Shown piece after piece: positions 1 to 55,654 of a stretch of DNA of 59,643 bases. Source of the DNA: Bacteroidota bacterium (GTDB taxonomy: Bacteria > Bacteroidota > Bacteroidia > JAADEI01). The notes under the pieces were generated by a model, which was not told the DNA's origin, did no database searches, and worked only from the letters and a program-made list of their open reading frames with translations. The DNA lies in assembly GCA_026992635.1 (NCBI GenBank), contig JALWYU010000048.1, positions 1-59,643 on the forward strand, read 5' to 3'. Made by a program: the position numbers and the translations under genes. Every line of letters begins with the position of its first letter. Within the stretch, counting starts at the first letter, position 1.

Positions 1-42
1 CCCCCAATTCTCTCAAATTTTTGGCTTTGATAAGCTGGTGGG

Positions 43-1017: not shown

Positions 1018-1030
1018 AACGTGTAAGGTC

Positions 1031-1714
1031 ATGGAAGGTTTTTCGGGGAATCATCGGGAGAAACGGAGTGCGTCTTTTGTGAAGGAGGGAGATCGGGAGC
1101 AGGGAGCGGTTCGGGATAGTCAGGAGATTACGGAGCGTTTTGAGTACAATACGTTGCGTTCGCCGTTGCGTTATCCGCATGTGGGTCGGATATTTTTTCG
1201 GTTGGCGGAGGAAGCGGTGCGTGTAGGGGAGGATGATGAGGCACGTGCGAAGTTGTGTGCGGCGTTGATTGAGTCGGTGTTGCGTGCGCAGAATCGTCAG
1301 GGTGGTCGGATTCCGGAGGAGCGTTATCAGGAGATGTGGTCGGTGTTATTGAGTGGGCTGGGTGGGGCGTTGCGTGTTGCGCCGTGGGCGTTACCGATTC
1401 GGGGTGAGGAGAGTCAGGACGGGGAGACACCGGTGCGTATGGCGTATCCGCAGAGTGAGGAGGGCGTGGATCATGGTTTGGGGAGGATTGTGTATCGGTG
1501 GATTCGTGCGATTGAGGAGGTGGAGGATGCGGGTCGTCGTACGATTTATGCGACGGCGCTGGCGAATTTTTTGAAGTTTCAGATTCGGAAGTGGCAGGGG
1601 CGTCCCGCGAATGAGGAGACCTTAGAGGAGTACATGCGGATGTTGTCTCGGGGCACGTTGAAGCCGGATTTTCGGATACGGATTCCGAAGAGTGCTGATC
1701 GGAATCAGCGTTAG
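1031..1714 (+). CDS. DUF4290-domain protein
   Basis: EYNTLRSPLRYPHVGR resembles the DUF4290 N-terminal YNT..L..PEYGR motif; sits directly upstream of murA as in other Bacteroidota. Confidence 0.65.
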   Translation: MEGFSGNHREKRSASFVKEGDREQGAVRDSQEITERFEYNTLRSPLRYPHVGRIFFRLAEEAVRVGEDDEARAKLCAALIESVLRAQNRQGGRIPEERYQEMWSVLLSGLGGALRVAPWALPIRGEESQDGETPVRMAYPQSEEGVDHGLGRIVYRWIRAIEEVEDAGRRTIYATALANFLKFQIRKWQGRPANEETLEEYMRMLSRGTLKPDFRIRIPKSADRNQR

Positions 1715-1722
1715 GTGTGTAG

Positions 1723-3051
1723 ATGGGTACGGCGTTCGTAGTGGAAGGGGGTTATCGGTTGTCGGGGGAGATTGTTCCGCAGGGTGCGAAGAATGAGGCA
1801 TTGCAGGTTTTGTGTGGGAGTTTGTTGACGGATCGTCCTGTGGTGATTCGTCGTGTTCCGCGGATTCGGGATGTGGAGTATTTGCTGGAGGCGATGAAGG
1901 CGTTGGGTGTAGAGGTTTCGTATTTGGCACGGGATGTGGTTCGGGTTCATGCGCGGGAGGTTCATTGGGAGGGGATGCGTACGGATGCGTTTCGTCGTGC
2001 GATTCGTCGGATTCGTGGTGGCGTGATGCTTGTGGGTCCGGTTCTGGTTCGTACGGGTTGTGCGGTGTTGCCGCAGCCTGGGGGTGATCGGATTGGTCGT
2101 CGTCGTTTGGATACGCATTTGGAGGGATTGCGTCAGTTGGGTGTGGATGTGGAGTATCGGTCTGGAGAGCGGGAGTACTGGTTTCGTGTGGGTCGGTGGG
2201 CGTCGGGTGGTGTACGTGTTTGGTTTTGGGAGCCGTCGGTGACGGGCACGGCGAATGTTTTGATGGCGGCGACGGCGTGTTCGTTTCCGGTGGAGTTGTA
2301 TCATTGTGCTTGTGAGCCGTATGTTCAGCAGTTGTGTCGGTTTCTTCGGCGGTTGGGGTATCGGATAGAGGGGGTAGGGACGAATCGTTTACGGTTGGTG
2401 GGGTATGACCCGCCGTCGGGTTCGGATCCATTTTCGCATGATTTGCAGCCAGATATGATAGAGATTGGGAGTTTTATTGGTTTGGCGGCGATGACGCAGT
2501 CGGATATTCGGATTCGGGATGCGATGCCCGATCAGATTCCCAATATTTTGCGGGTGTTTGCGCGGTTGGGGATTGATTTTCGGATAGAGGGGGATACGAT
2601 TCATGTGCCGGCTCAGGAGGTATATGAGGTTCAGCCGTTTGCCGATGGGTCAATTTTGACGGTGTATGATGCGCCGTGGCCGGGATTTCCTGCGGATTTA
2701 TTGAGTGTGGTGCTGGTTACGGCGGTTCAGGCACGGGGTACAGTGTTGATTCATCAGAAGATGTTTGAGAGCCGGTTGTTTTTTGTGGATTCGCTGATAG
2801 ATATGGGTGCGCAGATTATTTTGTGCGATCCGCATCGTGCGACGGTAGTGGGGCTTGCGCGTCGTGTTGCGTTGCGCCCTGTGGAGATGTCGTCGCCGGA
2901 TATTCGTGCTGGGATTGCGATGTTGATTGCAGCCTTATCGGCGTCGGGCACGAGTATAATTCGGAATGCGCATCAGATTGATCGGGGGTATGAAGCGATA
3001 GATGTTCGGCTTCGTCGGCTGGGTGCACGGATTGAGCGGATAGAGGAATGA
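1723..3051 (+). CDS. murA: UDP-N-acetylglucosamine 1-carboxyvinyltransferase
   Basis: GAKNEAL, PGGDRIGRR, SVTGTAN, PWPGFPAD, FESR, SPDIRAG, IDRGYE motifs. Confidence 0.97.
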   Translation: MGTAFVVEGGYRLSGEIVPQGAKNEALQVLCGSLLTDRPVVIRRVPRIRDVEYLLEAMKALGVEVSYLARDVVRVHAREVHWEGMRTDAFRRAIRRIRGGVMLVGPVLVRTGCAVLPQPGGDRIGRRRLDTHLEGLRQLGVDVEYRSGEREYWFRVGRWASGGVRVWFWEPSVTGTANVLMAATACSFPVELYHCACEPYVQQLCRFLRRLGYRIEGVGTNRLRLVGYDPPSGSDPFSHDLQPDMIEIGSFIGLAAMTQSDIRIRDAMPDQIPNILRVFARLGIDFRIEGDTIHVPAQEVYEVQPFADGSILTVYDAPWPGFPADLLSVVLVTAVQARGTVLIHQKMFESRLFFVDSLIDMGAQIILCDPHRATVVGLARRVALRPVEMSSPDIRAGIAMLIAALSASGTSIIRNAHQIDRGYEAIDVRLRRLGARIERIEE

Positions 3052-4820
3052 CGGTGTTGCAGACGGTTACTTTGGTGATTACGCTGGGTTTGATTTTGAC
3101 GCTGGCAGTTACGCGGTTTAAGCCGTTTCATGTGTTTCTGGTGGGTGTGTTGAGTTTATTGTTTACGGGGGTGTTGACGATTGAGGAGGCGACGATGGGT
3201 TTTTCCAATCGTGGTGTGATTACGTTGTTTTTGGTTTTGGCGTTTTCCCAGGTATTTCGTGGCAGTGCTTTGTTGCATCGGTTGTTGGGTCGGTTGTTTC
3301 ATGAAGGGGTTTCGTATGCGGGGTTTGTTGTTCGGTCGGGTATGGTGTTGGCGCCGATCTCAGCGGTGATGAGCAATACGTTGTTGATGGCGGTTACGCT
3401 TCCGTACATTGTGGAGTGGTCGCGCAGGAAGGGTTTGGTCCCTTCGCGGGTGTTGTTACCGTTGGCGTCGTTGATCATTGCGGGGGGGACGTTGACGTTG
3501 ATTGGGACGTCGTCGCATTTGGTGATTGCGGGTTTTGCCCGGACGCAGGATCCACCGGTGGAAATTCCGGTGTTTGCATTGTTGCCTGTGGGTGTTGTGG
3601 TTTTGGTGGTTGTGGTGGTGTACTGGTTGGTAATGGGCTGGCGGTTATTGCCGGTTCGCCGTGATCCGCGAGAGACTGTAGAGGGCAATTTTCGGCAGTA
3701 TACGGCGGAGGCACGGGTTTTACCGGATTCGCCTTTAGTAGGTCAGACGGTTGCGCGTGCGCGTCTTCGGCATTTGCGACGGCTTTTTCTGGTGGAGATT
3801 TTACGGGGTGATGAGCGGATTTATCCGGTGAAGCCGGCGGATGTGATTCAGGCGGGGGATATTCTGGTGTTTGTGGGTACGCCAGAGGCGATCTTGGAGC
3901 TGACACAGGTTCATCCGGGTTTGGAGATTGGTGGGTTGTTTGCGCGTCGTCGGTTTCCGAGTATGGATGTGGTGGAGGCGGTGATTCCCTTGAATTCTAC
4001 GTTAGCGCGTCGTCGGTTGCGGGATACGCAATTTCGTGCCCGGTTTGATGCGGCGGTGATTGCCATTCATCGGCATGGTGAGCCGTTGCGTGGAGGTCTG
4101 GGGAACATTGTGTTGCAGTCTGGGGATTTGTTGTTGTTGTTGACGGGTCCGGATTTTTGGGCGCGAGTTCGGAATGAGACGGACTTGTATGTGATTGGGA
4201 AGGTGGGTCAGCTGTATCGGTTGAAGGGTGTGCAGGACTGGTTTTTGTATGGGGTGTTTTTGGTGGCGATAGGGTTGTCGGCTTTGGGTGTGGTGTCGTT
4301 GCCTGTGGCGTTGGCAGGGGCGCTGGCGTTGCTAACGGTTTTTCGGATCCTTTCTCTGAATGATTTGCGTACGGGGATTGATTGGCCACTGGTTTTGGTG
4401 ACGGCGTTGTCGATTCCAATTGGGTATGCGTTTGTGAAGGTAGGGTTAGTGGATCGGTGGGTGTCGTGGTTGGCGAATACGGTTTCGTTGACGCCGTGGT
4501 GGTGGCTTGTGATTGTGTATGGTTTAGGTATGGTCTTGACGGAGTTGACGTTCAATGTTGGGGCGGCGGCGCTGATGGCGCCCATAGCGATTCAGGTTGC
4601 CCGGGTTTGCGGGTCGGCACCGGAGCCGTTTCTTTTGTCGGCGATGTTTTCGGTTGCGTTAAGTTTTTTGACGCCGTATGGGTATCAGGTGAATTTGATG
4701 GTGATGGGTCCGGGTGGTTACCGGTTTGTAGATTATTTGCGGGCGGGCTTTCCGCTGACTGTGATTTTCCTTTTTTTGATTCCCACTTTGCTTTACGTTC
4801 TGTATTGGAAAGGGGCGTAG
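3048..4820 (+). CDS. SLC13/DASS-family permease with TrkA-C (RCK-C) domains, probable sulfate transporter
   Basis: [11 protein letters not shown], two central TrkA-C repeats, [22 protein letters not shown]; first gene of the sulfate-activation cluster. Confidence 0.88.
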
Positions 4821-4822
4821 AG

Positions 4823-5479
4823 ATGGCGGGCATGAGTCGGGAAAAACGGATTGTCATTCCGCATCGGCATCGCGTTCAGAAGAAGGATCGGATTGCGCGG
4901 TATGGTTATCGTCCTGCGATTTTGTGGTTTACGGGCTTGTCGGGTTCGGGCAAGTCCACGTTGGCGTCTCGTGTTGAGGAGGTGCTTTTTTATCAGTATG
5001 GTTGCCATACGTACATTCTGGATGGGGATAATATTCGGACGGGTTTGAATCGGGATTTGGGGTTTTCGCCGGAGGATCGTGAGGAGAACATTCGGCGGGT
5101 GGGGGAGGTGGCACGTCTTTTTGTGGATGCGGGTTTGATTGTGTTGACTGCGTTTATTTCTCCGTATCGTCGTGATCGGGATCGGGTACGTGGTTTGGTT
5201 GAGCCGGGTGAGTTTATAGAGATTTACGTGCATTGTCCGCTGGAGGTGTGTGAGCAGCGTGATGTGAAGGGTTTGTACAAGCGTGCGCGGGCTGGTGAGA
5301 TTCCCAATTTTACGGGGATTTCGGATCCGTATGAGGAGCCGTTAAATCCGGAGATTGTGGTTCACACGCACTTAGAAGATGTGGAGACGTGTACAGCTCG
5401 GATTATTCGTTATCTGGAAGAGCATGGGTATATTTCGTTGTCGGGGAAAGTGGCTTCATCTGAAAGTGGGGATTCATGA
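4823..5479 (+). CDS. cysC: adenylyl-sulfate (APS) kinase
   Basis: [13 protein letters not shown]-loop, [25 protein letters not shown]; start moved to ATG 4823 after the permease stop. Confidence 0.96.
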
Positions 5480-6627
5480 ATACGCCGCATGGAGGTGAGC
5501 TGGTACAGCGGTGGGTACGTTCGCCGTCGTCGGAGGAGCTGGAGCGGTTTCGTCGGGATTTTCGGACAGTGGCTGTGTTGCATGAGCGGTTTGTGATTGA
5601 TGCGCTGGCGATTGCTCAGGGGATTTACAGTCCGTTGCGTGGTTTTTTGGGCAAGGCGGATGTAGAGCGCGTCATAGAGGAGTTTCGTTTAGCGGATGGG
5701 ACGCCTTGGGCGATTCCGATTGTCTTGCCGGTTTTGGAGCCGGAGCTGGTTCCGGAGGGTCGCGTATTGTTGACGTGGTTAGAGCAGCCGTTTGCGTGGA
5801 TGGAGGTGCGTGAGGTGTATCGTATACCTATGAAGCGGTTTGTGCAGGGTGTATTTGGCACGGATGATGTGCGTCATCCGGGTGTGGATTTCTGGACGGG
5901 TTTGACGGATTGCTGGTTTGTTGCGGGTGAGGTCAGTGTGTTTCGTTCGCCGTTGCCTTTGCCGGTGGATGCCCGGTATTTGTTGAGTCCTGTGCAGGTT
6001 CGTGAGGCGATACGTCGTCGTGGTTGGAAGCGTATTGTGGCGTTTCAGACGAGAAATCCCATACATCGTGCGCATGAATATTTGATCAAGTGTGCGCTGG
6101 AGATGATGGATGGGGTATTGATTCATCCGCTGGTGGGTGCGACGAAGCAGGATGACATTCCGGCGTCTGTCCGAATGCAGTGTTATGAGGTGTTGTTGAA
6201 GAATTATTTTCCGGAGTCCACAATGTTGCTCAGTGCGCTGTATGCGAATATGCATTATGCGGGTCCGCGTGAAGCGATTCATCACATGATTATGCGGAAG
6301 AATTTTGGGTGCACGCATATGATTATAGGTCGGGATCATGCGGGTGTGGGGAATTATTATGGACCGTATGATGCGCAGGAGCTGGCGCGTGCGTGGAGTT
6401 CGGAGTTGGGGATTGAGCCCATTTGCTTTGAGCATGCGTTTTATTGTCGGCGTTGTGGGAGTACGGCGACGCGCAAGACGTGTCCGCATCCCGAATCAGA
6501 TCATTTGCATTTAAGTGGGACGGAGTTACGTCGTCGGTTGCGTTCTGGCGAGCCGATTCCTGAGGAGTTTTCGCGAAAAGAGGTGCTTGCCATTTTGCGC
6601 AGCTGGGTTCAAAGTGCGAGTGATTGA
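5476..6627 (+). CDS. sat: sulfate adenylyltransferase (Sat-type ATP sulfurylase)
   Basis: PHGG N-terminus, [28 protein letters not shown]-terminal CxxC..CPH zinc site. Confidence 0.96.
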
Positions 6628-6700
6628 TTTTTGCAGGTTGGGGATTGAAAACTTTTTCCTGGATTGAGTGCAGGGGTGGCATGGAAAAATCCTGTCTGGC

Positions 6701-7603
6701 ATGAAGAACATAGAGAAGCTGGCGGAGCTGGCGATACGTGCGGGGATTGCCGGGGGTGTGGAGGTGTTGCGTGTGTATGAGCGTCCTGCGGAGGTATGGC
6801 GTAAGCAGGACACCTCGCCTGTGACGGAGGCGGATCTTCGTTCGCATCGTGCGATTGTTGAGGTGCTGAAGGAGAGCCGGATTACGGTGATCAGTGAAGA
6901 GGGGAAGTTGTCGCCGTCTAAGCGCAGGGGGAAGAAGCGCTTTTGGCTGGTGGATCCCTTAGATGGTACGCGTGAGTTTCTGGATCGGAATGGTGAGTTT
7001 TGTGTTTTGGTGGCGTACATAGAGGAGGGTCGTCCGCAAATCGGCGTGTTGTACATTCCGATTACAGATGTGCTGTACGTAGCGGTACGTCCGCTGGATC
7101 GGGTATTTCGGATACGGGGTGCCCGGTATTTGCAGCCGCTGGTGCAGAGTTATGCGGATTGGGAAGCCAGTTCTGAGCCGTTTCGCAGGGAGGTGCGTTA
7201 TGGGGATAGTGGTTTGCAGGTTGCGGTGAGTCGTTCTCACCTGGATAAGTTGACGGCTTCGTTTGTGGAACGGCTTTCGGAGCATGTGTTGAATGTGCAT
7301 GCTTATCCGCGGGGCAGTGCGATTAAGTTTCTGGATGTGGCGCGGCATCGTGCGGATTTGTATCCGAGGATGGCGCCTACGCATATTTGGGATGTGGCGG
7401 CGGGCATGCTGTTTGTGGAGATGATGGGTGGCGTGATTGATACGCCTGCAGGTTTGGAGTTTGCGTCGGACAGGGAGCGGGAAGTGTTACCGGGGTTTAT
7501 TGCCTGGGCGAATGAAAAGGTTCGTGCGCGGGTTTTGCGTGCTCTGGGAATAGAGAGTCTGGAGGAGTTGTGGCGAGGGTATTTGCCTGAGGCACTTTCT
7601 TGA
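6701..7603 (+). CDS. cysQ: 3'(2'),5'-bisphosphate nucleotidase
   Basis: KQDTSPVTEAD, SEE, FWLVDPLDGTREF, SRSH, WDVAAG motifs; start at 6701 is an estimate. Confidence 0.9.
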   Translation: MKNIEKLAELAIRAGIAGGVEVLRVYERPAEVWRKQDTSPVTEADLRSHRAIVEVLKESRITVISEEGKLSPSKRRGKKRFWLVDPLDGTREFLDRNGEFCVLVAYIEEGRPQIGVLYIPITDVLYVAVRPLDRVFRIRGARYLQPLVQSYADWEASSEPFRREVRYGDSGLQVAVSRSHLDKLTASFVERLSEHVLNVHAYPRGSAIKFLDVARHRADLYPRMAPTHIWDVAAGMLFVEMMGGVIDTPAGLEFASDREREVLPGFIAWANEKVRARVLRALGIESLEELWRGYLPEALS

Positions 7604-7616
7604 GGTAGTGGGTAGA

Positions 7617-8405
7617 ATGGGTTTGTGGTTTTGGAAGGGGGAAGCCAGTGGTAACGATTTCGTTGTGCTGGTGGATGAGGAGGTGGATGAGGAGGTGGTT
7701 CGTCGGTTGTGCGATCGGCATCGTGGGATTGGGTCTGATGGGTTGCTGGTGCTTACGCGTGGTGAGGGGGAAACTCCGGTGTTTCGTATGCGGTTTTGGA
7801 ATCCAGATGGGTCGGTTGCAACGTTTTGCGGGAATGGTGCACGGGTTGCGTTGCTGGTTGCGGGTCGGCTGGGGTGGATTTCTCCGGGGCGAGTATGCTG
7901 GTTTGAAGCGGCAGATGGCATGCATCGTGGGTGGTGGGAGCCGGCTGGTTCGGGTTGTTGGTCAGGGGGTCGTGCAGGTGTGAGTTTGCGGATTCGGACG
8001 AGTCGTCAGCTGGATTCCGAAGCGGTTTACGTACACAGTGGCACGCATCATGTTCTGGTTCGTGTTTCTCGGGGCAATGATGAGTTGTTTCGGCGGGCTG
8101 TAGCTCGTTGGCGGTGGGCACGTTCTGTAAGTCCTGAAGGGACGAACGTGAGCATATACTGGGAAGAGGGAGGGAAGGTGCATATTCGTACGTATGAAAA
8201 AGGTGTGGAAGGGGAGACGCTTTCCTGTGGGACGGCGGTGGCGGCGCTGGGCTGGTGGATCAGTGAGCAGTCATCAGGACGAACGTTTGTCGCGATTTGG
8301 ACTCGGGGTGGCGAGCTGGTCTGGCGTCCAATAGATCGGTTCCAGGGTTGGTTAGAGGGTGCTGCCCAGTTGGTTTTTCGGGGTGAGTGGATTGGTGGCG
8401 TGTGA
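7617..8405 (+). CDS. dapF: diaminopimelate epimerase
   Basis: GNDF, CDRHRGIGSDG, NPDGS..FCGNGAR, RTYEKGVEGETLSCGT. Confidence 0.92.
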   Translation: MGLWFWKGEASGNDFVVLVDEEVDEEVVRRLCDRHRGIGSDGLLVLTRGEGETPVFRMRFWNPDGSVATFCGNGARVALLVAGRLGWISPGRVCWFEAADGMHRGWWEPAGSGCWSGGRAGVSLRIRTSRQLDSEAVYVHSGTHHVLVRVSRGNDELFRRAVARWRWARSVSPEGTNVSIYWEEGGKVHIRTYEKGVEGETLSCGTAVAALGWWISEQSSGRTFVAIWTRGGELVWRPIDRFQGWLEGAAQLVFRGEWIGGV

Positions 8406-8474
8406 GGTTGTGAATACGCAAAGGGCTGGATTATCCGTTGGCAGGAATAAAAAACAGGTGCGGAAAGGTAAGGG

Positions 8475-8960
8475 ATGTTCAAGGGGAAGCGGAGAGTGGT
8501 TCACGGGGTGCTGGAGGTTGCCTTCATTCTGAGTGTGGTTGGGTTCGTGGGTACGGGGAGTGGTTGTCGTCGTACGAGTCAGTATCCGGTAGAGCCAATC
8601 ATAGATTCTGTTCATTTGTCCAGTCGGTGGGTGCGTGCCGGGAATGACACACTGCTTATTTTCATTTACGTTCGGGATGGGGACGGGGACTTGGGTCGGG
8701 CACCTACGGATACGACTCGCGACCTGTTTGTTCAGGACTTGCGAACGGGCTTTACCTATACCTACCAGATGCCAATGGTTGATCCTGTAGCGAGTTACCG
8801 GGGAGTGGAAGCGACAATCGTGGTAGAATTTGTGAACCTGCTGTTGTGTCGGCCGGGCTTTCGGGAGGATTCGACACGGTTGGAGATCTGGCTGCGTGAT
8901 CGGGCGGGACACGAGAGTAATCGGGTTCGGACGGATGTGATACGGATTGGGTGTTTGTAG
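8475..8960 (+). CDS. hypothetical lipoprotein
   Basis: Basic N-terminus, hydrophobic stretch and GSGC lipobox-like site; DGDGDLG and DRAGHESN motifs recall small Bacteroidota lipoproteins. Confidence 0.6.
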   Translation: MFKGKRRVVHGVLEVAFILSVVGFVGTGSGCRRTSQYPVEPIIDSVHLSSRWVRAGNDTLLIFIYVRDGDGDLGRAPTDTTRDLFVQDLRTGFTYTYQMPMVDPVASYRGVEATIVVEFVNLLLCRPGFREDSTRLEIWLRDRAGHESNRVRTDVIRIGCL

Positions 8961-9070
8961 GGGATTTGGTTGGGCTGGGGTTCGGCGCTGGTTTTCAGGG
9001 AGTTATGGCGCCCTGCAGGGCGCCATAACTCCCTGAAAACCAGCGCCGAACCCCAGCCCAACCAAATCCC
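8961..9070. repeat. perfect 110-bp palindrome (55-bp arms, no loop)
   Basis: GGGATTTGGTTGGG...GGCGCCCTG|CAGGGCGCC...CCCAACCAAATCCC; exact self-complement with centre between 9015 and 9016; flanking bases 8960/9071 do not pair. Confidence 0.98.
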
Positions 9071-9073
9071 AAC

Positions 9074-11665
9074 TCAAAACCGCAAATACCGCCAAAAAGG
9101 TGTCAAATTCCATGTCAATCCGGTTTCTATCCAGGTCGTATGTATCGTTTGCGTCTTCCATTGTTCAGTACTGGCTCCGGCAGCGGCGTACAGATAGATG
9201 CCGGGTGTCCAGGCGTAGCGAATGACGATCAGACCGTAGTGGCGACGCCAGGGTAAACCCTGACCGGGAACATTGTACCAGTAGCGGGCAGGAAAGGGTG
9301 TGATGTTGTGGGGGTCGTGTCCCCAGATGCGTTCAGGGGGTTCGTCCAGACCTGTCGTACGCCACAGGTACCGACCGCTCACCTGCCACCGTTCCCGCTG
9401 AAATACGGCTTCCAATCCGTAAAAGTAGGTGTTGGCACCGATACCTAAGGGAATTCGGTAATGCGCCATTACTGTCAGGGAGTCAAAGTGTGTGTAGACA
9501 AAGGGGCGGTTCCGACCGGCACTGGCGACGAGCACCAGGTCGCGTGCAGGGGCAAGCAGGCATTCTATAATCCAGCCCCATTTATTCAGGTAGGAGCCCC
9601 ATTGGACAGGGGCGTTGAGAATTCCCAGCTGACTGAGCACGTAGCGGACATCGCGCCGAAATTCTTTACTCCAGAAATCGTCTATGTAAATCTGGGCGCG
9701 GAGGTTCACCCATCGGCGTGGACGGATTGCCAGTGCCAAGCCCATCACCATATTGTGTGGTGAGCCCAGGTAGTGTTCTACTGCCCGATAGAAAATAATG
9801 GGGTTCAGATAATGGATATCAGGTGGACGCCAGGCTCCATTCGTATCGGCGCCCGGTTGCATCACGCCTTCCAGCCAGGCAATGGTTAACCAGGAAGAAA
9901 CACGCACCTCCAGCAAATGCCATGAGAAGTAACGGGTGGGGCGTGCACCCAGCCGCCGAAAGTAGTGTTTCAGCACAGCCCATACGACAGCATACCGAAT
10001 GCGTTTCAGGTTGAGGATTGCCTGAAAAGAAGTATGGATGGGAAGGTGCCAGTTCCACCACAGAGAATAGCGTGTTGGACCCACGTATTGAAAATCGTGG
10101 AGCCAGCGAAAACGAAGGTGTCGTGAAGGGCGCCACACCAGAAGTGCACCGGCTGGATTGACGTCCATACCGCGTGTGTAGAGGGTATCGGATGCATAGC
10201 CTGAGAAGTTTTTATTCCAGCCTACGGGGAAGTAGGCACCTCGCCATAGGGAATCCCGAGCTGTTCGGAATATGTAGGGTGGGTTCCATTGTCCGTCCAT
10301 TAGCCAGGTTGCCCAGGCGAAGCGCTTGTAGGTGCCCTGAACCAGCAGTCCACGAAAATTCCCATAGGGTAGTGGTGGGCGGACCGGCAGGGAAGTACCT
10401 ATGCCTTGCCAGAGTAGTGGGCGAATTTCCCAAAATCCGCTGGAATCCAGAAGTTTTCGGTACAGGCAGGGGTAGGTGCCCCATCCCTCTCGCCGACATA
10501 CTACTGATACAAACCATGTGTCAATTTGTGCATTGGTCAGGACGTGCAGGTCTGCAGGTGGGAAAAACAAGAAGGGCATAAGCTTGCTGGAGTCCCGGAT
10601 CAGGTGTCCTTCCAGCCAGAGTACCGTTGCAGGATCCAGGGTCAACAGGGACGGAGGGACAACTTGCTCTGAGACAGGCAACCGTCTGGATGACTGAGCA
10701 ATTGCGCGAGCAGGCTTGGATGCCCATCCGCCATCTGCCGTCAATAGCCAGAAGCCAAATGTGAAGGCAATTGCTTTGAAATTGAACGAAGCCAATTGAA
10801 CAGAACCTGTGGTTTGTCGGGTGCGTCGCCACCATGCAATCACCAGTAACGCCAGTACGATTATGCCACCTATTGTAGCGATGGATCCCGCGATTGTTAC
10901 GTCCAGCCACAACGCGAAAATCATACCTGTCAGCGTCAAAACGATACTCACCAGCGTGGCAGTCACTAAGAACGCAATCAAAGTCCGAATCCCCAGCAAA
11001 TGTACAATTAACGGGGATTGTACACATAATGCCAGTGTCAGGACCACGCCCGTCGTGTGCAAACTCAACACCAGCGTAATCGTAATCAGCATTTGCCAGC
11101 CATAGCGCAACACCAGTGGACGGACAGGGGCGGGCGCACCAAACGCTTCTGCCCACAACCATTTGCCCCACCGAAATAAAAACACCAGCCACAACACAAG
11201 CAGACAGCCAGCAACTATGGGAACACGGGGTACACCCGATATCCCTAGAACTTCAATCCATGACACCTGCCACCATTGCACCGGTATGTATTCCAGTTCA
11301 CCCAGCAGGAGACATTCCAGATCCAGGTGCGCTTGATCGCCCCAGCGCACAATGAACAGGACACCAGCGCCAAAAAGAACAAATGCCACGGCACCCAGCA
11401 TAGCATTCCGATCAAACGGCAATTTTTGCTGCAGTAGATAGGTCCAGGCAAGCTGGACAAGCGCCGCCACTAAGAAACCCGGCACAACACCCCATTGTCC
11501 CAAAACCAGATACCCCACTAAAATGCCTGGCAATACCCCATGGAGTAGAGCATCTGCTATTAACAGCTCACGGCGGACATACAGGAATGCTCCCAGCCAC
11601 GTCAGCAATATTCCCACCAGCAAAACGCCTGCAATCAGCACAAACGTACCCACCCAGGGTGCCAT
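9074..11665 (-). CDS. apparent fusion: metal ABC permease (ZnuB/MntB-like, ~280 aa) + outer-membrane beta-barrel-like domain
   Basis: N-part has DALLHGVLPGI and LLLGEL with many TM helices; C-part has YLNPIIFYRAVEHYLGSPHN, amphipathic strands and a terminal Phe (WRYLRF). Confidence 0.65.
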   Translation of the reverse strand: MAPWVGTFVLIAGVLLVGILLTWLGAFLYVRRELLIADALLHGVLPGILVGYLVLGQWGVVPGFLVAALVQLAWTYLLQQKLPFDRNAMLGAVAFVLFGAGVLFIVRWGDQAHLDLECLLLGELEYIPVQWWQVSWIEVLGISGVPRVPIVAGCLLVLWLVFLFRWGKWLWAEAFGAPAPVRPLVLRYGWQMLITITLVLSLHTTGVVLTLALCVQSPLIVHLLGIRTLIAFLVTATLVSIVLTLTGMIFALWLDVTIAGSIATIGGIIVLALLVIAWWRRTRQTTGSVQLASFNFKAIAFTFGFWLLTADGGWASKPARAIAQSSRRLPVSEQVVPPSLLTLDPATVLWLEGHLIRDSSKLMPFLFFPPADLHVLTNAQIDTWFVSVVCRREGWGTYPCLYRKLLDSSGFWEIRPLLWQGIGTSLPVRPPLPYGNFRGLLVQGTYKRFAWATWLMDGQWNPPYIFRTARDSLWRGAYFPVGWNKNFSGYASDTLYTRGMDVNPAGALLVWRPSRHLRFRWLHDFQYVGPTRYSLWWNWHLPIHTSFQAILNLKRIRYAVVWAVLKHYFRRLGARPTRYFSWHLLEVRVSSWLTIAWLEGVMQPGADTNGAWRPPDIHYLNPIIFYRAVEHYLGSPHNMVMGLALAIRPRRWVNLRAQIYIDDFWSKEFRRDVRYVLSQLGILNAPVQWGSYLNKWGWIIECLLAPARDLVLVASAGRNRPFVYTHFDSLTVMAHYRIPLGIGANTYFYGLEAVFQRERWQVSGRYLWRTTGLDEPPERIWGHDPHNITPFPARYWYNVPGQGLPWRRHYGLIVIRYAWTPGIYLYAAAGASTEQWKTQTIHTTWIETGLTWNLTPFWRYLRF

Positions 11666-11753
11666 GCCCTCATCGGAATTGATGTCAGAACGGGTAAACT
11701 CTGTCCCGGAAAAAAATCAGGCGATGGACGATGCACTATCCGTCCTCCCTTTA

Positions 11754-14234
11754 TTAACGTAAAAGGGTTACATCGCCTTTCAGAAAATAGCGAGCACCCC
11801 GTCGTCCAGGACAGGCAACCTCCAGATAATAAACGTAAACATCGGAACGGGCAGGCTGACCACCTGGAAGCCTGCCATCCCAACCAATCACCGTCCTGCC
11901 TTTCCCCGGGTCAAAAGGTACGTCTTTTTGCTGAAAGAGAAGGTGTCCCCACCGATCATAAATCCTCCATTCTTTCACGACAAGGTTGGCGGCATAGGAG
12001 TAAACGTAAAACTGGTCGTTGATCCCATCGCCATTGGGTGTAAACACGTTGGGGACAAAGATGTACTCTTCTGTGCAGGGTACGTCCAGGATCCATATAC
12101 GGAGCCAAGCCTGGGCAAAGCATCCATACTCGTTGATCACGTAGAAGTGAATCACGGTATCCTGACGATTGACACCTGGCGGAAGCATAGGCGCCCACAA
12201 CACCGTTTGTAATGTCTGGGTATCGCCGGTTGACCACCAGTACAGCAAGCCGTCTGTAGAGGCTTCCAGCGTGAGGAACTGCCCTTCCACAATAGTCGTA
12301 TCACCCAAAATCTCTGCTTCAGGCAAGGGATAGACCACTACGGGCAGTAAGATTGTATCGTTGGGGCAAACGGAATCTGCCAGCACAACGATTGTATAGG
12401 TTGTGGAGACGGGTGAGGTAATGGCGTATGTATTGTTCCCCAGGGCAATTACGTCCTGCATAGTCAGCCATTGAATGGTAAAGTTTCCGCTGTTGATGGT
12501 CAGTGTATCGCCTTCTCCATAGCAGTAGGCTAAGGAGTCTGGAGTGACGGAAGCAACTGGCGGCATCTCCACGAACACAATGATTGTATCTGTGCCCTGA
12601 CACCCCAGTGAATCGGTCACCGTCACTATGTAGGTTGTATTGTCTGGGGGTGAAGCCCAGGGTGTGGCACAGTCCGTACAGGAGAGTCCAGTGGGTGGTG
12701 TCCAGCTGTAGGAATAGCCACTGCCTGCAATCCCTGTAGTCAACTGGATGGAATCACCTAAGCAGATCAAGGGGTTGGGACCCAGATCAGGCGCGGGCAA
12801 AGGCTGAACATGAACCTGAAAGGTATCCAGTGCCAGACATCCTAAGGAATCCCACGCTAAGACGACAATGTCCTGGGAAGCAGATGGGTAAATCCACGTA
12901 CCCGGACAGGTGGCACAGGTAACGACCGAGTCGGGCAACCACTGCCATTGCATCCCTTGTGGAATTTGTGCTTCCAGATAGAGCGAATCACCTAGACAGA
13001 GAAACGTATCGGACATCGTGATTTGCGGGTCCTGAACCCGAACAATGACTGTATCCAGGGAAGGACATTCATATCCATAACCCACAACAAGCAAAGTTTC
13101 CTGTTGCGTGGGGAAAATTTGTGCTTGTAAGCAGGGCTGACCACCACACAGTACAATAGAGTCGGGCGACCAGATCACCGAATCCCACGTGGCTGACGAA
13201 TTTACCTGCAGTACAAGAGTGTCTCCTGCACATATTGTTGTATCCGGAGGCAGGTTCAACGAAGGGGGCGTAGGAAAGTTAAACACTACGGTGTCCGAAT
13301 ACCACAGGGTATCGCCGGAACACCGGACATAACCTACACGCAGGACATATTCGGAATAGCCCAGTGGACAGGCAAGGAGTGTATCCGTACCCGTCGCCAC
13401 CAGTGTATTGTTCAGATACCATTCAATGACGCGGGGCAAGGGTGGACCATTGGGGATAAACCGCCAGGCTTCGCTGGCTCCCCACCAGATACCGGTGTTT
13501 CTTCCTGGGGGTGTCCAGCCTGTTGCTGCATTGGCTTCAATACCGATAACTGCCAATCCACCATTCCAGGACAGACAAATGGGTTTGGTGTAAATGTACA
13601 CGTCCACATAGTTGTACGTCTCGTGCAAAACGATTTGTTGCGTGGTGGACAAATAGTTACACCAGTAATGAGCAACGTTATCATAGGAAATCACAAATTG
13701 CCGGAAGGGTGCTGTCCCTATAACTGTATACCGGATTGTGCCGTAAACCGATGGATCCATGTCATGATACGCACCATGAATCATACTGGGCCATGGCGGA
13801 TCAATTCCTGAGGGAATCGGTGCCGAAAAGGACCAGTTGCAATAACTACCTGCTGGGACGACATTGGGGTCAAAGCGAACCACACCATTGGAGCACATTT
13901 GCGCCAGGTTGCGTACCGTATCCAGAAAACAAAACGGAAAAGTGATGGAGACAGGGGCATCCCACGTATCATCCCAGCTTGAAATCAACGGCAGGACCGT
14001 ACCTACAGAAGGCGAAACTGGCGGAGTAAACGGAATGCTCATTACCTGATAACTACTGGTCCGACGCAGCTCTCCATAGGAAGCATAAAGTTCAGTGCAT
14101 TGTCCGCAGGAAATGCTGGCATTCTGTACCTGAATGCTCACATTCAGTGAGGACTGTGCCTGTACAATTGACTGCAAGCCTGAGGCGATAAGGAATGCGA
14201 GTGCCCAGCCCTGAGTCCTGAGGCGTTTCGCCAT
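11754..14234 (-). CDS. secreted protein with Ig-like repeats and T9SS type B (gliding-motility-associated) C-terminal domain
   Basis: Signal peptide; C-terminus VPNVFTPNGDGINDQF..IYDRWG..WDG..VYVY..GDVTLLR. Confidence 0.9.
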   Translation of the reverse strand: MAKRLRTQGWALAFLIASGLQSIVQAQSSLNVSIQVQNASISCGQCTELYASYGELRRTSSYQVMSIPFTPPVSPSVGTVLPLISSWDDTWDAPVSITFPFCFLDTVRNLAQMCSNGVVRFDPNVVPAGSYCNWSFSAPIPSGIDPPWPSMIHGAYHDMDPSVYGTIRYTVIGTAPFRQFVISYDNVAHYWCNYLSTTQQIVLHETYNYVDVYIYTKPICLSWNGGLAVIGIEANAATGWTPPGRNTGIWWGASEAWRFIPNGPPLPRVIEWYLNNTLVATGTDTLLACPLGYSEYVLRVGYVRCSGDTLWYSDTVVFNFPTPPSLNLPPDTTICAGDTLVLQVNSSATWDSVIWSPDSIVLCGGQPCLQAQIFPTQQETLLVVGYGYECPSLDTVIVRVQDPQITMSDTFLCLGDSLYLEAQIPQGMQWQWLPDSVVTCATCPGTWIYPSASQDIVVLAWDSLGCLALDTFQVHVQPLPAPDLGPNPLICLGDSIQLTTGIAGSGYSYSWTPPTGLSCTDCATPWASPPDNTTYIVTVTDSLGCQGTDTIIVFVEMPPVASVTPDSLAYCYGEGDTLTINSGNFTIQWLTMQDVIALGNNTYAITSPVSTTYTIVVLADSVCPNDTILLPVVVYPLPEAEILGDTTIVEGQFLTLEASTDGLLYWWSTGDTQTLQTVLWAPMLPPGVNRQDTVIHFYVINEYGCFAQAWLRIWILDVPCTEEYIFVPNVFTPNGDGINDQFYVYSYAANLVVKEWRIYDRWGHLLFQQKDVPFDPGKGRTVIGWDGRLPGGQPARSDVYVYYLEVACPGRRGARYFLKGDVTLLR

Positions 14235-14298
14235 TAGCCTGAAATTTCCAGGAGTTCAGAGCATTGTGCAGGGCAATCGGTGCCATACCACCCCCATA

Positions 14299-14306
14299 AT
14301 AAGGTA
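14299..14306 (-). promoter_or_regulatory. candidate -7 promoter element TACCTTAT
   Basis: Same 8-mer occurs upstream of glnA (41271) and the POT transporter (57409), each in the sense orientation; variant of Bacteroidota TAnnTTTG. Confidence 0.4.
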
Positions 14307-14405
14307 ACTTAAGGAGCAAAAAGTTTTTTGCCAAGTCATTTTTGGATACTTTCTGAGGGAGGTCTTGCGTTTCTTCTTCGCACACGAACGCAAATCCGAG
14401 CAAAT

Positions 14406-15350
14406 ATGGACAGGAATAACGGGGGTCAATGTTTGCCTGAGGAAACGGCAATGGTTCGGCAAGCCGAACAAAAAACTTCTGAGTCCCACGCGTTATCTTC
14501 TTTTGAGGAGGAAGCCGACGCGGTACATGGCGTGCCATTCCCGTCTAACGGGGATAGTCCGCCATCCGGTTCCGAACATGAAGAAACGGACATGACAGCG
14601 AGGCGCAGGCGCCGTCGGAAACGAACTGAGCTCACACCCGAAGAACATAACCGACGTCTCAAAGTGTTTCGTGAAGAGATTGAACCACTTTTGCCTCGCC
14701 TCCTGCACTTTGCATTGAGTCTTACGACCAGTGGGGGTCAGCCCAACCTGGATTTAGCCCAGGATCTTGTGCAGGAAACCTGCCTGCGCGCCTTTGAAGC
14801 CCTGGATACCTACGAGCCTGGTACCAATATCCGTGGCTGGCTCTTCACCATTATGCGCAACCTGTACATCAATGAATACCGACGGCGCAAAAGTCTGCCC
14901 CGCCATTTCTCTTACGAGGAATACTCCACGTTTCGCTCGGAGGATGAAGAGGAAGGGGGTGCCACGACTTCAGGGATTGCCGGTTCAGACCTGCGCGAAG
15001 AAATCGCCAATCAATACCTGTCGGACGAAGTTGTGAAAGCCCTGATGAAACTGCCTGAGGAGTTTCGGCTGGTCGTCCTCCTTGCCGATTTTGAAAACAT
15101 GAAATATGAAGAGATAGCCAAGATTATGGGAATACCCATTGGGACGGTACGCTCACGGCTGCACCGGGCAAGGCGTCTTCTCAAACGGGAACTGAAAGAC
15201 TATGCCTCCCGGTTCTATCAGATAAAAGAGGTGAAACGGGGTGTAACCCGAGAATCCCGGAAACATGAAGACTCAGCCCATGCCGGGGAAGCGGGCGACG
15301 AAAAACCCGACAACCCATCTGCCGCGACCCGATCCGCCTCCACAACCTGA
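14406..15350 (+). CDS. ECF sigma-70 factor (SigH/SigR-like)
   Basis: Region 2 AQDLVQETCLRAF..YEPGTNIRGWLFTIMRN; region 4 YEEIAKIMGIPIGTVRSRLHRAR; start uncertain (14406, 14451 or 14592). Confidence 0.92.
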   Translation: MDRNNGGQCLPEETAMVRQAEQKTSESHALSSFEEEADAVHGVPFPSNGDSPPSGSEHEETDMTARRRRRRKRTELTPEEHNRRLKVFREEIEPLLPRLLHFALSLTTSGGQPNLDLAQDLVQETCLRAFEALDTYEPGTNIRGWLFTIMRNLYINEYRRRKSLPRHFSYEEYSTFRSEDEEEGGATTSGIAGSDLREEIANQYLSDEVVKALMKLPEEFRLVVLLADFENMKYEEIAKIMGIPIGTVRSRLHRARRLLKRELKDYASRFYQIKEVKRGVTRESRKHEDSAHAGEAGDEKPDNPSAATRSASTT

Positions 15351-15684
15351 AGGTTCCGACAGGGCACGCACCCCAACTACTTCTCAGAAACGGGGTAATC
15401 CGCGTACAGTCGCCCGCTTCCGTAAATACCGGCGCCACCTCCTGCTATGCCGCCGTGTCCAGCGATGGATGTATGACGCCATTGATGGACGATTACCCCC
15501 GGCACGCTACCGGATTTTTCTTTATCATGTGTCGCGATGTAGCCGATGTCGGCGAAAGCTGAAACGCGAAATCCACTATTTACGCTTCCTGCGTATGGCG
15601 CTGTATGCCCGCTTGAATGCCCTTTCACACATCGTGGAGAAAATGGGTCAGACAGTTCGGCGCCATATCATGGGACAGGCATAA
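15265..15684 (+). CDS. zinc-binding anti-sigma factor (zf-HC2/ZAS)
   Basis: C..(IDGRL)..HVSRCSRC = HxxxCxxC directly after the ECF sigma; no TM helix; true start uncertain. Confidence 0.7.
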   Translation: MKTQPMPGKRATKNPTTHLPRPDPPPQPEGSDRARTPTTSQKRGNPRTVARFRKYRRHLLLCRRVQRWMYDAIDGRLPPARYRIFLYHVSRCSRCRRKLKREIHYLRFLRMALYARLNALSHIVEKMGQTVRRHIMGQA

Positions 15685-15800
15685 AGCCAAGAGGTACACG
15701 TCATCTAAGGGGTGCGTTGCTTTGTGAATGGCAATCAAGTGCTGCATAGACATAGGCTGGCGTGGTAAATCCTCGGTGCACCAAGTAGATTTCCGGAGCC

Positions 15801-16655
15801 GTGTGGTGGATTCTACGATGGACTCTTGAACTGGGTATTGGCAGCTACGGTACATTTGCGGGCTTTTCCACATATGTAGAGGCTGGAACAAGTCTCTGGC
15901 TAAGCACATTCGCAGGTTGTCGCGTGCGCACTTACCTGGGCTATCGGATCGGACCTCAGAACCAGTCGGTCGTAGGCGAAGCCCGAATGCAAGTGGGAAT
16001 CCGTGTTGGTGCCCAGCCTTACAGTACGCTGCCAGGCATACGGACACTGACCACTTTGAGTAATCGGGTCGCTCAGCCTGATCGGATTACCCATCCAACC
16101 CGGCCGCAGCAAGCACGCTTCCCCACACTCTTTGTGGGCTGGAACTTTTATGCTGACACGCGCAATACCGGGCAACGGACAGGCTTCCTCCTGCTCAGCT
16201 GGAACAACTGGTATCTCTACCACGAAAACGATGCGTGGGCAGGACAAGGCTACGATCGCTACCGAACTGCAACTGTTTGGCTCGCCTACTGCCCTGCAGA
16301 AACCACCTGCTTAGAACTCTATCTTTTTTTGTGGACGGGCGATCCTACACCCGCACCCATTGTCGCGTGGCAGGGCAAACGATGGCGGCTCCTTACTCAG
16401 GGCATTGCCGGCGCCTATACCCATGGCGTGACCGCCCTGACAATTCGCTGGTATCAGTATACCTTTCAGATGGGTGTTGATAGCGAACGACTCCGCGCCA
16501 GTGTCCAGAATGCCGTGCACGCCTTGCCTTTTCTGCGTAAGCGAAATGTTTTGATGGCGCCTGTCAATGCCTCGGGTTTGCCAGCATTTACCCTGCCTCC
16601 AAGGAGTACCTATCCCTGGTGGAGTGCTACGTATGGAGCCTGGCTGCCGATGTAA
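15801..16655 (+). CDS. protein with putative polymorphic toxin type 23 (Ntox23)-like domain
   Basis: YHENDAWAGQGYDRYRTA fits the ND + DxxR signature, with a later QNAVH histidine; recognised from memory, no search run. Confidence 0.55.
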   Translation: MWWILRWTLELGIGSYGTFAGFSTYVEAGTSLWLSTFAGCRVRTYLGYRIGPQNQSVVGEARMQVGIRVGAQPYSTLPGIRTLTTLSNRVAQPDRITHPTRPQQARFPTLFVGWNFYADTRNTGQRTGFLLLSWNNWYLYHENDAWAGQGYDRYRTATVWLAYCPAETTCLELYLFLWTGDPTPAPIVAWQGKRWRLLTQGIAGAYTHGVTALTIRWYQYTFQMGVDSERLRASVQNAVHALPFLRKRNVLMAPVNASGLPAFTLPPRSTYPWWSATYGAWLPM

Positions 16656-16678
16656 CCTGCTTGTGGTCAACTGATTTG

Positions 16679-16751
16679 TGCCCTCGCCCGGACTCGAACC
16701 GGGATCTGTGGCTTAGGAGGCCACCGCTCTGTCCTGTTGAGCTACGAGGGC
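16679..16751 (-). tRNA. tRNA-Arg (CCT)
   Basis: Reverse strand GCCCTCGTAGCTCAACAGGACAGAGCG-GTGGC-CTCCTAA-GCCAC-AGATCCCGGTTCGAGTCCGGGCGAGGGCA folds as a cloverleaf. Confidence 0.96.
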
Positions 16752-16880
16752 AGTGCCCAACTTCTGGACGCCTTCCCTTTCCAAAACAATGGCGCCAACC
16801 AGAAGGTTTCACTGAGGGAACTTCTTTTTGAAGGGGTGTGTTTACTTTGGCAAGGTAGCAGGAAAAAAACCATCTGGAGC

Positions 16881-17159
16881 ATGACGAAGATCGTGTATCT
16901 TCCGCCCGAAAAAAAGCGCGAGATTATTGAGATGGCAGTGGGTTCGTACAATCCGGGTGCGCCCGAAGCACAAATCGCACTTTGGACTTACCGGATCCAG
17001 CATCTGACTCGCCACCTGCAGCAACATCCCAAGGATTACAGGACGTTGCGTGCTTTGAAGATGCTGGTGGGGAAGCGCCGAAGAATGCTCCGCTATTTAC
17101 AGCGGAAGGACTTCAGCCGATACCAGCGTATCGTCCAGAAACTGGGCATCCGGGGGTAA
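16881..17159 (+). CDS. rpsO: 30S ribosomal protein S15
   Basis: GAPEAQIA..RIQHLTRHL..HPKD..LVGKRRRMLRYL..LGIR; upstream of pnp. Confidence 0.96.
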   Translation: MTKIVYLPPEKKREIIEMAVGSYNPGAPEAQIALWTYRIQHLTRHLQQHPKDYRTLRALKMLVGKRRRMLRYLQRKDFSRYQRIVQKLGIRG

Positions 17160-17246
17160 GCCAGTTCAGACAGAAAGACAGAAAGACAGCACACCGATGG
17201 GTAGCGCTCACCCCCTGACCTCCAGGCATAACCAAATCAAAGACAA

Positions 17247-19643: not shown

Positions 19644-19691
19644 GGGGGACGTAAATCTGAAGGGAAGGCGTACACAGGTTGGGAAGAGAAA

Positions 19692-20843: not shown

Positions 20844-20847
20844 TTGG

Positions 20848-20875
20848 ACGTGTGTGTGTGTGTGCGTGTGCGTGC
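20848..20875. repeat. (GT)n / purine-pyrimidine alternating tract
   Basis: ACGTGTGTGTGTGTGTGCGTGTGCGTGC in the nrnA-tamB intergenic region. Confidence 0.85.
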
Positions 20876-20964
20876 TACTGGTTGGCAGATCTATCCTCTT
20901 TTGGGATTTGTGTGGGAATTGTCCCGGGAACTGGCATAAATTTTGCATAGGAGGGTAGATGACA

Positions 20965-25952: not shown

Positions 25953-25967
25953 CAAAGGGTGTTGTGC

Positions 25968-27059: not shown

Positions 27060-27086
27060 GGGATGGTTGACTCGCTTTGCAGAGTA

Positions 27087-29072: not shown

Positions 29073-29140
29073 GGGGAACTTTTTCCGCCCCGGAAACCGT
29101 TATATCGTGAAAAGTTTCCTACGTTTCCAAAGTTTCCCGG
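29073..29140. promoter_or_regulatory. candidate TetR operator region
   Basis: GGAAAC-N16-GTTTCC inverted pair (29092-29119) and three GTTTCC copies just upstream of the tetR ATG. Confidence 0.35.
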
Positions 29141-29160
29141 ACACGCCAAAACCAGAACCA

Positions 29161-32744: not shown

Positions 32745-32751
32745 CCTTACG

Positions 32752-52633: not shown

Positions 52634-52654
52634 ATGCGTTGTGTAGGTATAGGG

Positions 52655-55564: not shown

Positions 55565-55654
55565 GGGTGAGGTGCGTTTTGGAGGTGGTTGCCCTTTTAC
55601 TGGGTAAGTTAAGGTTCTGCGGGAAAACTTCGTGGGCAAAATTTTTGTGGTGGG

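Follow-up and report, generated by a model that had tools for sequence, protein, structure and literature searches.

Extragenic palindromic repeats lie behind genes in E. coli, where elements of the REP/BIME kind are considered to influence the 3' ends of mRNAs and to be bound by DNA-structuring proteins, and where REP sequences shield upstream mRNA from 3' exonucleases. MITEs, such as the Correia elements, are short, non-coding and dispersed, with inverted ends. The protelomerase sites of N15-type phages (telRL) are perfect or nearly perfect palindromes without a spacer, each present singly beside a protelomerase gene on a linear replicon. Long palindromes stall replication forks and get cut by SbcCD. 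In the account given in PMC3733652, REPs are sequences of 20-40 bp that carry a GTAG or CGTC tag at one end, and Bertels and Rainey (2011, PMC3116915) describe REPINs as inverted REP doublets that form hairpins, in which compensatory changes are common and which are mobilised by RAYT. Template switching is in turn described as a process that turns imperfect inverted repeats into perfect ones and so homogenises their arms (PMC7202029, PMC8604942).

In this study, we analyzed a window of 59,643 nt, which is one whole contig (C48) of a draft genome of 114 contigs and 2.13 Mb with a completeness of 82.55%. The initial annotation had described a perfect, loop-less palindrome of 110 bp in it, and such a palindrome is indeed present: its arms (8961-9015 and 9016-9070, 55 + 55 nt) are 100% complementary with a spacer of 0 nt, and the centre reads TTATGGCGCCCTG followed directly by CAGGGCGCCATAA, as that annotation had given it. 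The placement between two genes was reproduced as well, the first base coming right after the TAG of the plus-strand gene at 8475-8960 and the last base lying 3 nt short of the stop codon (9074-9076) of a minus-strand gene. The palindrome is the sole inverted repeat of at least 24 nt (arms at most 200 nt apart) in the window. When folded as single-stranded DNA, it reaches -83.1 kcal/mol (z = -14.9), and none of 200 shuffles equalled it. The hairpin lacks a U-tract, as had been claimed, with no T-run past it on either strand, and the reported IHF-like string TTTCAG-GGAG-TTA is present in both arms, letter for letter. The recurrence of CTGGTTTTCAG at 28754 was also confirmed, and a further site was found at 21571 (4 matches versus 0.03 expected). 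The core that characterizes the repeat family described below is absent from the sites at 21571 and 28754, and they are not half-elements. The features of the locus are as follows.

1..8960, plus strand: G/T-skewed arc, with a GC skew of +0.31 to +0.52 in the skew profile, terminating at the element.
8475..8960, plus strand: left flanking gene of 161 aa, without a Pfam family; all 5 of 5 related genomes searched have a homologue, and the element follows directly on the TAG stop codon.
8961..9015, no strand assigned: left arm, 55 nt, G/T-rich, 100% complementary to 9016-9070.
8961..8980, no strand assigned: copy-specific outer arm, G/T-rich with telomere-like runs (mirror at 9051-9070), varying among copies and pairing perfectly within each.
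8981..9010, plus strand: family-conserved core of the left arm, CTGG-N4-CAGGGAGTT (with CAGGGAGTT at 8996-9004), whose columns are invariant or nearly so in 12 aligned copies.
9011..9020, no strand assigned: variable apex, CCCTG followed by CAGGG, palindromic through the dyad and differing in sequence among copies.
9016..9070, no strand assigned: right arm, 55 nt, C/A-rich; the right-flank contig of a second assembly (Logan) begins inside it, at 9041.
9021..9050, minus strand: right-arm mirror of the conserved core, with the reverse-strand match at 9023-9044.
9074..11665, minus strand: right flanking gene of 863 aa, whose N-terminus resembles an ABC-3 permease and is fused to a C-terminal domain; 3 nt separate the gene's stop codon from the element.
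9071..36000, plus strand: low-skew stretch (about 0) starting at the element in the skew profile; the skew climbs later to +0.47 by about 45 kb.

Both flanking genes are real, since the 161-aa product has homologues and the 863-aa product carries an ABC-3 domain. The former shows 38-43% identity to its homologues in three genomes of the same family, with the alignment reaching residue 160 of 161, and the two halves of the latter are separate genes in relatives. Upstream of the palindrome are ordinary chromosomal genes (sulfate activation, an inositol monophosphatase-family protein and DAP epimerase). When metagenome contigs were scanned with the 161-aa neighbor, 59 loci were obtained, in which all full-length matches had at most 41% identity and no sister species was found; short C-terminal fragments reached up to 52% identity.

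A genome-wide scan identified 19 spacer-less perfect palindromes with arms of at least 12 nt. Nine of them are internal or near-terminal and have arms of 45-62 nt, and the other ten lie exactly at contig ends. Four of the latter have 27-nt arms, which would be expected where an assembler with k = 55 stops inside a palindrome. All of these palindromes carry the core CTGG-N4-CAGGGAGTT with its neighboring bases, and they differ in the apex and the G/T-rich outer arm. From the outside inwards, an arm thus consists of variable G/T-rich sequence, some 30-36 nt of conserved core and a variable apex. Allowing loops of 1-3 nt yielded further complete copies. The core 9-mer has 91 occurrences in the genome, compared with a mean of 12.2 for 30 shuffled 9-mers, and a 22-nt core pattern occurs about 48-50 times (0 for the reversed control). 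A looser pattern detected 62 arms and 11 complete internal copies (more than 130 nt from any contig end). An arm is found within 130 nt of 31 of the 228 contig ends, and only 1.4% of the genome is that close to an end. Four of 31 core pairs (C26:2202, C75, C83 and C99) proved on inspection to be non-members and were excluded from later counts. We estimate that the draft contains about 27-42 elements.

Outside this genome, the 22-nt core pattern was detected in none of 30 relatives and in none of 400 other genomes of the class, and a DNA-level search of the 30 relatives found nothing. The GTDB family includes only three other genomes, which are at about 40% GC, show no skew and lack a palindrome (arms of at least 12 nt) near the orthologous genes. 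A search of all species representatives (596 Gb) with the core pattern gave at least 100 matches, where about 140 are expected by chance; those listed are all single, unpaired and from unrelated taxa. In Rfam, no match reached the gathering score, and only sub-threshold matches to miRNA precursors and other generic hairpins were obtained. The palindrome is therefore one copy of a dispersed, genome-specific family. The initial annotation had put forward a telomere-resolution site, a view that by its own terms falls with the finding that many dispersed copies sit between genes.

Members of the family occupy tiny gaps between genes; most follow immediately on a stop codon, and many are at convergent junctions. 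Each of the 11 internal copies is intergenic, one of them being overlapped by an ORF end, and 10 of the 11 are located directly behind at least one stop codon, 0-27 nt away. Five copies lie between convergent gene ends (in gaps of 0-27 nt), three in tail-to-head co-directional junctions, one between divergent gene starts and two at a one-sided gene end. Convergent junctions are enriched (5/11 copies versus 155/1034 gene junctions genome-wide, p = 0.016). Pfam support was found for 14 of the 18 ORFs flanking internal copies.

Between copies, arm identity is 64-91%, and each copy resembles its nearest counterpart at 73-91%; these ranges leave out copies C16 and C96, whose perfect arms are merely 5 and 8 nt long. 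Within copies, 624 paired positions in 12 copies include no mismatch and no G·T pair, and dyad symmetry continues through the centre in 9 of the 12 (chance p = 2.7e-9). Alignment of the 12 copies revealed compensatory double changes in 33 of 47 pairs and a single one-sided change. The symmetry is not absolute, as arm mismatches occur in the contig-end copies C16 and C96 and in the contig-start copy on C49; these three are all at contig ends and may be assembler mosaics. These data show concerted evolution of the two arms within each copy alongside divergence among copies, and the homogenization proposed in the initial annotation is upheld by arms that are perfect within diverging copies, symmetric through the dyad and free of G·T pairs. 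The absence of wobble-type pairs, together with symmetry that reaches the centre, argues for arm-to-arm copying at the DNA level and not for selection on an RNA fold. Hairpin stability cannot select dyad symmetry, because loop bases are unpaired.

Among known kinds of elements, REPINs are the closest, and REPIN-like palindromic repeat is the most fitting description of the element. Like REPINs as characterized by Bertels and Rainey, the family has two inverted conserved blocks about 20-40 nt apart in a hairpin of about 100 nt, and its copies are dispersed, extragenic and lineage-specific, with compensatory changes across the two sides. It differs from the REPINs of that account in that no RAYT/Y1 transposase was detected, in that it pairs perfectly, spacer included, and is usually loop-free, in that its most conserved block is situated beneath the apex and not at the ends of the element, and in that only tens of copies exist, which reach no more than 91% mutual identity and form no near-identical clusters. 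A further difference is the host, a Bacteroidota-type vent bacterium. The Y1/RAYT transposase domain (Y1_Tnp, PF01797) gave 0 matches in the 82.55%-complete genome, with the control positive in 6 of 14 reference genomes. Neither GTAG nor CGTC is present in the conserved core, and GTAG occurs within 12 nt of the left boundary in 2 of 12 copies (C48 and C49b). Because RAYT was not found and the tag is absent, we have not filed the element as a REPIN.

The other systems resemble the family in fewer respects or in different ones. With the E. coli REP/BIME sequences it shares the form of palindromic repeats in extragenic space behind genes; REPs are imperfect and, by the size given in the cited literature, 20-40 bp long, whereas members of the family are perfect, 90-124 bp long and have a core without the tag. 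Like MITEs, the copies are short, non-coding and dispersed, with inverted ends. Unlike MITEs, they lack target-site duplications (in 12 of 12 copies, flanking direct repeats have a maximum length of 0 nt), their outer ends are the least conserved part, and no sequence matching the element was found by BLAST in plasmid and phage collections. Other signs of mobility are likewise missing among the copies, as the best pair is 91% identical, near-identical pairs do not occur and no empty sites were found. Template-switch mutagenesis at quasipalindromes, in the form outlined in the two papers cited above, offers a known DNA-level mechanism for arm homogenization; there it concerns a mutational hotspot at a single site, whereas persistent action on a whole family would be required here.

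The genome shows an extreme GC skew, with contig means of up to ±0.49 and third-codon-position values of up to ±0.9. The skews of 2-kb windows are spread nearly uniformly from -0.45 to +0.45 and are not bimodal, and the profile is a saw-tooth in which slow upward ramps over tens of kb are followed by sharp drops. The top-strand skews of neighboring genes are correlated at 0.90 for same-strand and 0.86 for opposite-strand pairs. The skew is regional and not transcriptional, since opposite-strand neighbors have the same top-strand skew. A transcription-driven skew with the elements acting as terminators is rejected by this correlation; in addition, minus-strand genes at 52655-57393 sit in a +0.4 arc, and the ribosomal-protein operon (L16 on C103, plus strand) lies at a skew of about -0.1. 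A narrow search of the literature on saw-tooth or extreme bacterial GC skew returned nothing relevant. As a separate observation, the skew gives rise to long spurious ORFs on the C/A-rich strand.

The end of the G/T-skewed arc that the initial annotation had placed at the palindrome was recovered, with a GC skew of +0.38 in the 3 kb to the left versus -0.02 in the 3 kb to the right. We defined the step as left minus right skew over 3 kb per side, with ±150 nt excluded. The step is positive at 10 of 11 internal copies, with a mean of +0.177, compared with -0.040 (sd 0.109) at random positions, and none of 20,000 resampled means reached +0.177. Individual copies range from -0.03 to +0.40, the copy on C48 having the largest step (0.40). 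Nine eligible element junctions average +0.198 versus -0.032 at 1,025 element-free junctions (Mann-Whitney p = 3e-6). Convergent orientation as the cause of the step is rejected by the 151 element-free convergent junctions, whose mean step is -0.011. Inversions between elements are rejected by reasoning, as they would produce rises as often as drops, but drops account for 10 of the 11 steps. Of the 30 sharpest drops, 7 are within 1.5 kb of an element; of the 12 sharpest rises, 0 are. Several drops that are just as sharp lack an element, and genes adjoining elements do not always show the step. Averaged over 62 element sides and set against the ramp (means compared with the random-position slope), the skew is offset by about -0.09 per side, and the outward skew in the first kb beside these sides is +0.02, not negative. 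Each element is itself a micro skew drop, its 5' arm being G/T-rich. Most of the downward steps are partial rather than a change of sign, and they occur at tens of sites, the criterion for a terminus of the Ter/Tus or RTP type being a switch from plus to minus.

What is new here is the extreme saw-tooth GC skew of the genome together with elements at its downward steps. The family tends to sit at such steps, and the link is statistical. It may reflect a causal role (fork arrest or breakage) or preferential survival of elements at boundaries. In its polarity the step matches a terminus, at which G-rich strands converge, and it matches equally a recurrent break exposing 3' tails on both sides. 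The skew cannot be read with confidence as fork direction, because gene orientation barely tracks it (r = 0.03). DnaA is present, and a sharp upward skew step is found beside it, as at a normal origin. Gene loss is unsupported as an explanation, given that an SbcD-like nuclease gene (76.7 bits versus a cut-off of 77.65), two UDG genes and DnaA are all present. A second-strand origin of the OriL or plasmid sso type, which had also been suggested, is contradicted by the polarity of the skew: such an origin predicts that asymmetry is highest just 3' of the hairpin and then declines, whereas along the G-rich strand, read 5' to 3', the skew is lowest just past the element and climbs with distance (C48, C98 and C101, with C40 and C78 flipped).

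A second assembly bears on whether the palindrome is internal. It consists of Logan k=31 contigs from a hydrothermal-vent metagenome run (X1), which contains 98% of the sampled words and is probably the source, and was probably built from the same reads by a different assembler. A contig of 8,990 nt covers the left flank through to 8990, another of 29,969 nt starts at 9041 and continues into the right flank, and a third of 110 nt corresponds to 8961-9070 with 0 differences. No contig of X3, another run of that study, aligned to the window, a result that has no bearing on absence. The flank contigs reach 30 nt into the copy-specific outer arms and tie each arm to its own unique flank. This fits an internal palindrome, because the outer 30 nt of each arm are joined to a different unique flank, and the Logan contigs (as distinct from raw reads) fit neither a fold-back chimera nor a hairpin end. 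The depth of the 110-nt contig is 9.7 versus 25.1 and 30.1 for the flanks; this low value could result from under-sequencing of the hairpin or from heterogeneity in the population.

An artefact of assembly, either a fold-back chimera or a collapse of the de Bruijn graph that would disguise imperfect arms as perfect ones, might be suspected since 55 nt, the length of the arms, is also a common k-mer size, ten palindromes are at contig ends with four having arms of (55-1)/2 = 27 nt, and the support for 8961-9070 comes from contigs and not from reads. However, arm lengths vary among copies (45-62 nt), the independent k=31 assembly yields the identical 110 nt with identical flank junctions, the copies, which have unique flanks, make up a family of diverged sequences, and copy C96 keeps an outer-arm mismatch, so that mismatches are not automatically erased. 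It can also be reasoned, although this was not computed, that arms of at most 62 nt share no 55-mer outside a mismatch, making bubble collapse impossible; we regard such an artefact as very improbable. Even harder to sustain is the proposal of the initial annotation that the palindrome is a telomere-resolution site of the protelomerase/ResT kind or a junction of two hairpin telomeres. What it has in its favor is a perfect palindrome without a spacer, like the tel sites. Here, however, at least 27 chromosomal copies are present in a genome of about 2 Mb made up of ordinary housekeeping genes, the unique flanks on both sides are joined to copy-specific outer arms, a phage or plasmid context is absent, and no protelomerase was found, the catalytic ResT/TelK domain (PF16684) giving 0 matches in the 82.55%-complete genome. 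The chance that this reading is right seems negligible. That the hairpin acts in RNA, as a bidirectional terminator or as protection of 3' ends against exonucleases with its symmetry kept by selection on folding, is doubtful but deserves more weight. The hairpins are very stable, and the position of 10 of 11 internal copies within 27 nt behind a stop codon, with 5 of 11 between convergent genes, would suit it. A canonical bidirectional intrinsic terminator, as proposed earlier, does not agree with the 24 sides of the 12 copies, all of which lack a T-run past the hairpin and whose next 15 nt contain a mean of 1.8 T and 6.6 A; a terminator scan found only mini-hairpins internal to the arms (2 versus 1.4 expected) and did not flag the full hairpin. 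An origin of the symmetry in RNA folding is further opposed by the lack of any G·U-type pair among the 624 despite G/T-rich 5' arms, by symmetry that runs through loop positions unable to pair, by the copy between divergent gene starts and by the absence of a matching Rfam family.

The skew could also be taken as a sign that the elements are sites of fork convergence, fork arrest or programmed breakage, at which the inverted cores bind a putative factor or an extruded hairpin stalls or breaks forks. They would then be fixed boundaries of replication or repair polarity, and many dispersed initiation or resection events would produce the saw-tooth. We consider this reading unlikely, even though several observations suit it: the terminus-type polarity at 10 of 11 internal copies (p = 3e-6), the slow rise of the skew nearly everywhere (null step of -0.03 to -0.04) with 2-kb skews almost uniform between -0.45 and +0.45, the regional nature of the skew (neighbor correlations of 0.90 and 0.86), the micro skew drop at every element, and the SbcD-like nuclease, which scores just below its cut-off. 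On the other hand, DnaA is present beside a classical upward skew step, mean steps are modest (about 0.2) and many of the sharp drops lack an element, the skew running outward over the first kb of 62 element sides is not negative (+0.02), and gene orientation does not follow the skew. In a bolder form, the palindromes would be cis-acting polarity boundaries of a strongly mutagenic, strand-asymmetric process (fork convergence or arrest, or hairpin breakage) in a chromosome copied or repaired from dispersed starts. The N-domains of mammalian genomes are a saw-tooth of linear skew ramps and sharp jumps that is read as a mixture of fork directions, and the saw-tooth seen here would be their bacterial mirror, with arm symmetry as a by-product of hairpin-templated repair. 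The two patterns are alike in having ramps and jumps; they differ in that the polarity here is mirrored, with downward (terminus-type) jumps and upward ramps, and in that the host is a bacterium with DnaA. Both the boundary role and the comparison with N-domains strike us as decidedly unlikely.

We consider it probable that the whole is explained by a lineage-specific family of extragenic palindromic repeats of 90-124 bp, whose arms are copied from each other, which has spread in a REPIN-like manner and which possibly affects DNA transactions. Under this explanation by arm-copied repeats, symmetry would be maintained when one arm is copied from the other, through template switching or hairpin-templated repair as at quasipalindromes. 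The spread may have been that of a REPIN-like, non-autonomous hairpin element, whose mobilizing enzyme would be either not recognized or lost. More tentatively, the hairpin or cruciform may act on DNA transactions through fork pausing or breakage at the palindrome, which would explain the presence of copies at terminus-type drops of the saw-tooth skew. A role as an mRNA-protecting RNA hairpin at 3' ends would also be compatible with this explanation.

Through this family, the range of REPIN-like hairpin elements comes to include a vent lineage of Bacteroidota type in which RAYT is undetected. The unusually strict symmetry of its arms at the DNA level makes it a natural test case for the persistence of long perfect palindromes in bacteria. 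In practical terms, these palindromic elements break short-read assemblies, with 31 of 228 contig ends falling inside one. The extreme regional saw-tooth skew is found in the host genome and not in its relatives of the same family. If the link between palindromes and skew is causal, a closed genome and depth profiles could reveal how replication or break repair is organized in this organism.

Strand asymmetry is extreme and regional throughout the draft genome of this Bacteroidota bacterium, and in the window it occupies positions 1-8960 and 39000-59643. Values in 2-kb windows extend to +0.52 for GC skew and -0.42 for AT skew, and the skew at third codon positions is as high as ±0.9, while skewed and unskewed stretches have the same G+C content. 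The profile has a saw-tooth shape, in which skew climbs over 30-90 kb and then falls sharply. At the loci examined in the three other genomes of the same GTDB family (approximately 40% GC), no skew was found. The course of the skew was also followed on contig C103, which carries the following loci:

C103:9978-10463, dnaA
C103:18806-19192, ribosomal-protein operon

At dnaA there is a steep, origin-like climb in skew, from about -0.5 to -0.2. To the right of the gene there is a slow ramp with no jump to +0.5, and at the ribosomal-protein operon, 9 kb downstream of dnaA, the skew is about -0.1. It was also observed that sharp skew drops of 0.39-0.48 occur with no palindromic element nearby at five positions on other contigs of this genome (C16:13400, C108:60650, C80:9400, C42:15650 and C97:35150). 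Contig C80 additionally shows a very sharp skew rise at 5400 (-0.61), and its 4-kb segment from 5.4 to 9.4 kb looks like an island or an inverted segment.

An identical 74-nt palindrome with 37-nt arms was found at the end of contig C35 (1809-1882) and at the start of contig C52 (1-74). C35 and C52 are probably neighbours that meet at a single element. In the k=31 Logan contigs of the vent metagenome that is the probable source sample, the palindrome of the window (8961-9070) forms a 110-nt contig with a mean word depth of 9.7; the contigs of the two flanks have depths of 25.1 and 30.1. The value of 9.7 counts as low because arm words should be counted twice; either sequencing under-represents hairpin DNA, or the centre varies within the population. 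The right-flank contig stops near position 39009 (within 38990-39040 of the window), in low-complexity coding sequence rich in GCC/TCC and not at a family element, and this end lies near the point where the skew resumes climbing. The 11-mer CTGGTTTTCAG has four matches in the window against 0.03 expected. Two additional sites (21571-21581 and 28754-28764), one within a TamB-like gene and the other in a divergent intergenic region, lack the remainder of the family core, the conserved block within each palindrome arm.

Several genes and ORFs of the window deserve separate mention:

9074-11665, minus strand, 863-aa fusion protein (residues 8-277 ABC-3 permease-like; second part, residues ~395-855)
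14328-15350, ECF-type sigma factor gene
15801-16655, plus strand, protein of 284 aa carrying an Ntox23 (bacterial toxin 23) domain
8352-8912, 4793-5233 and 52107-53471, minus strand, long spurious ORFs opposite real genes

In the same-family genomes, the two parts of the 863-aa protein come from separate genes, which encode about 280 and 563 aa and lie on different contigs. The Ntox23-domain gene is located downstream of the sigma factor gene, within a low-skew stretch. Long spurious ORFs arise on the C/A-rich strand because stop codons are scarce there, and at 8352-8912 and 4793-5233 a gene call by longest ORF falls on the wrong strand. Such ORFs are a risk when this genome is annotated automatically.
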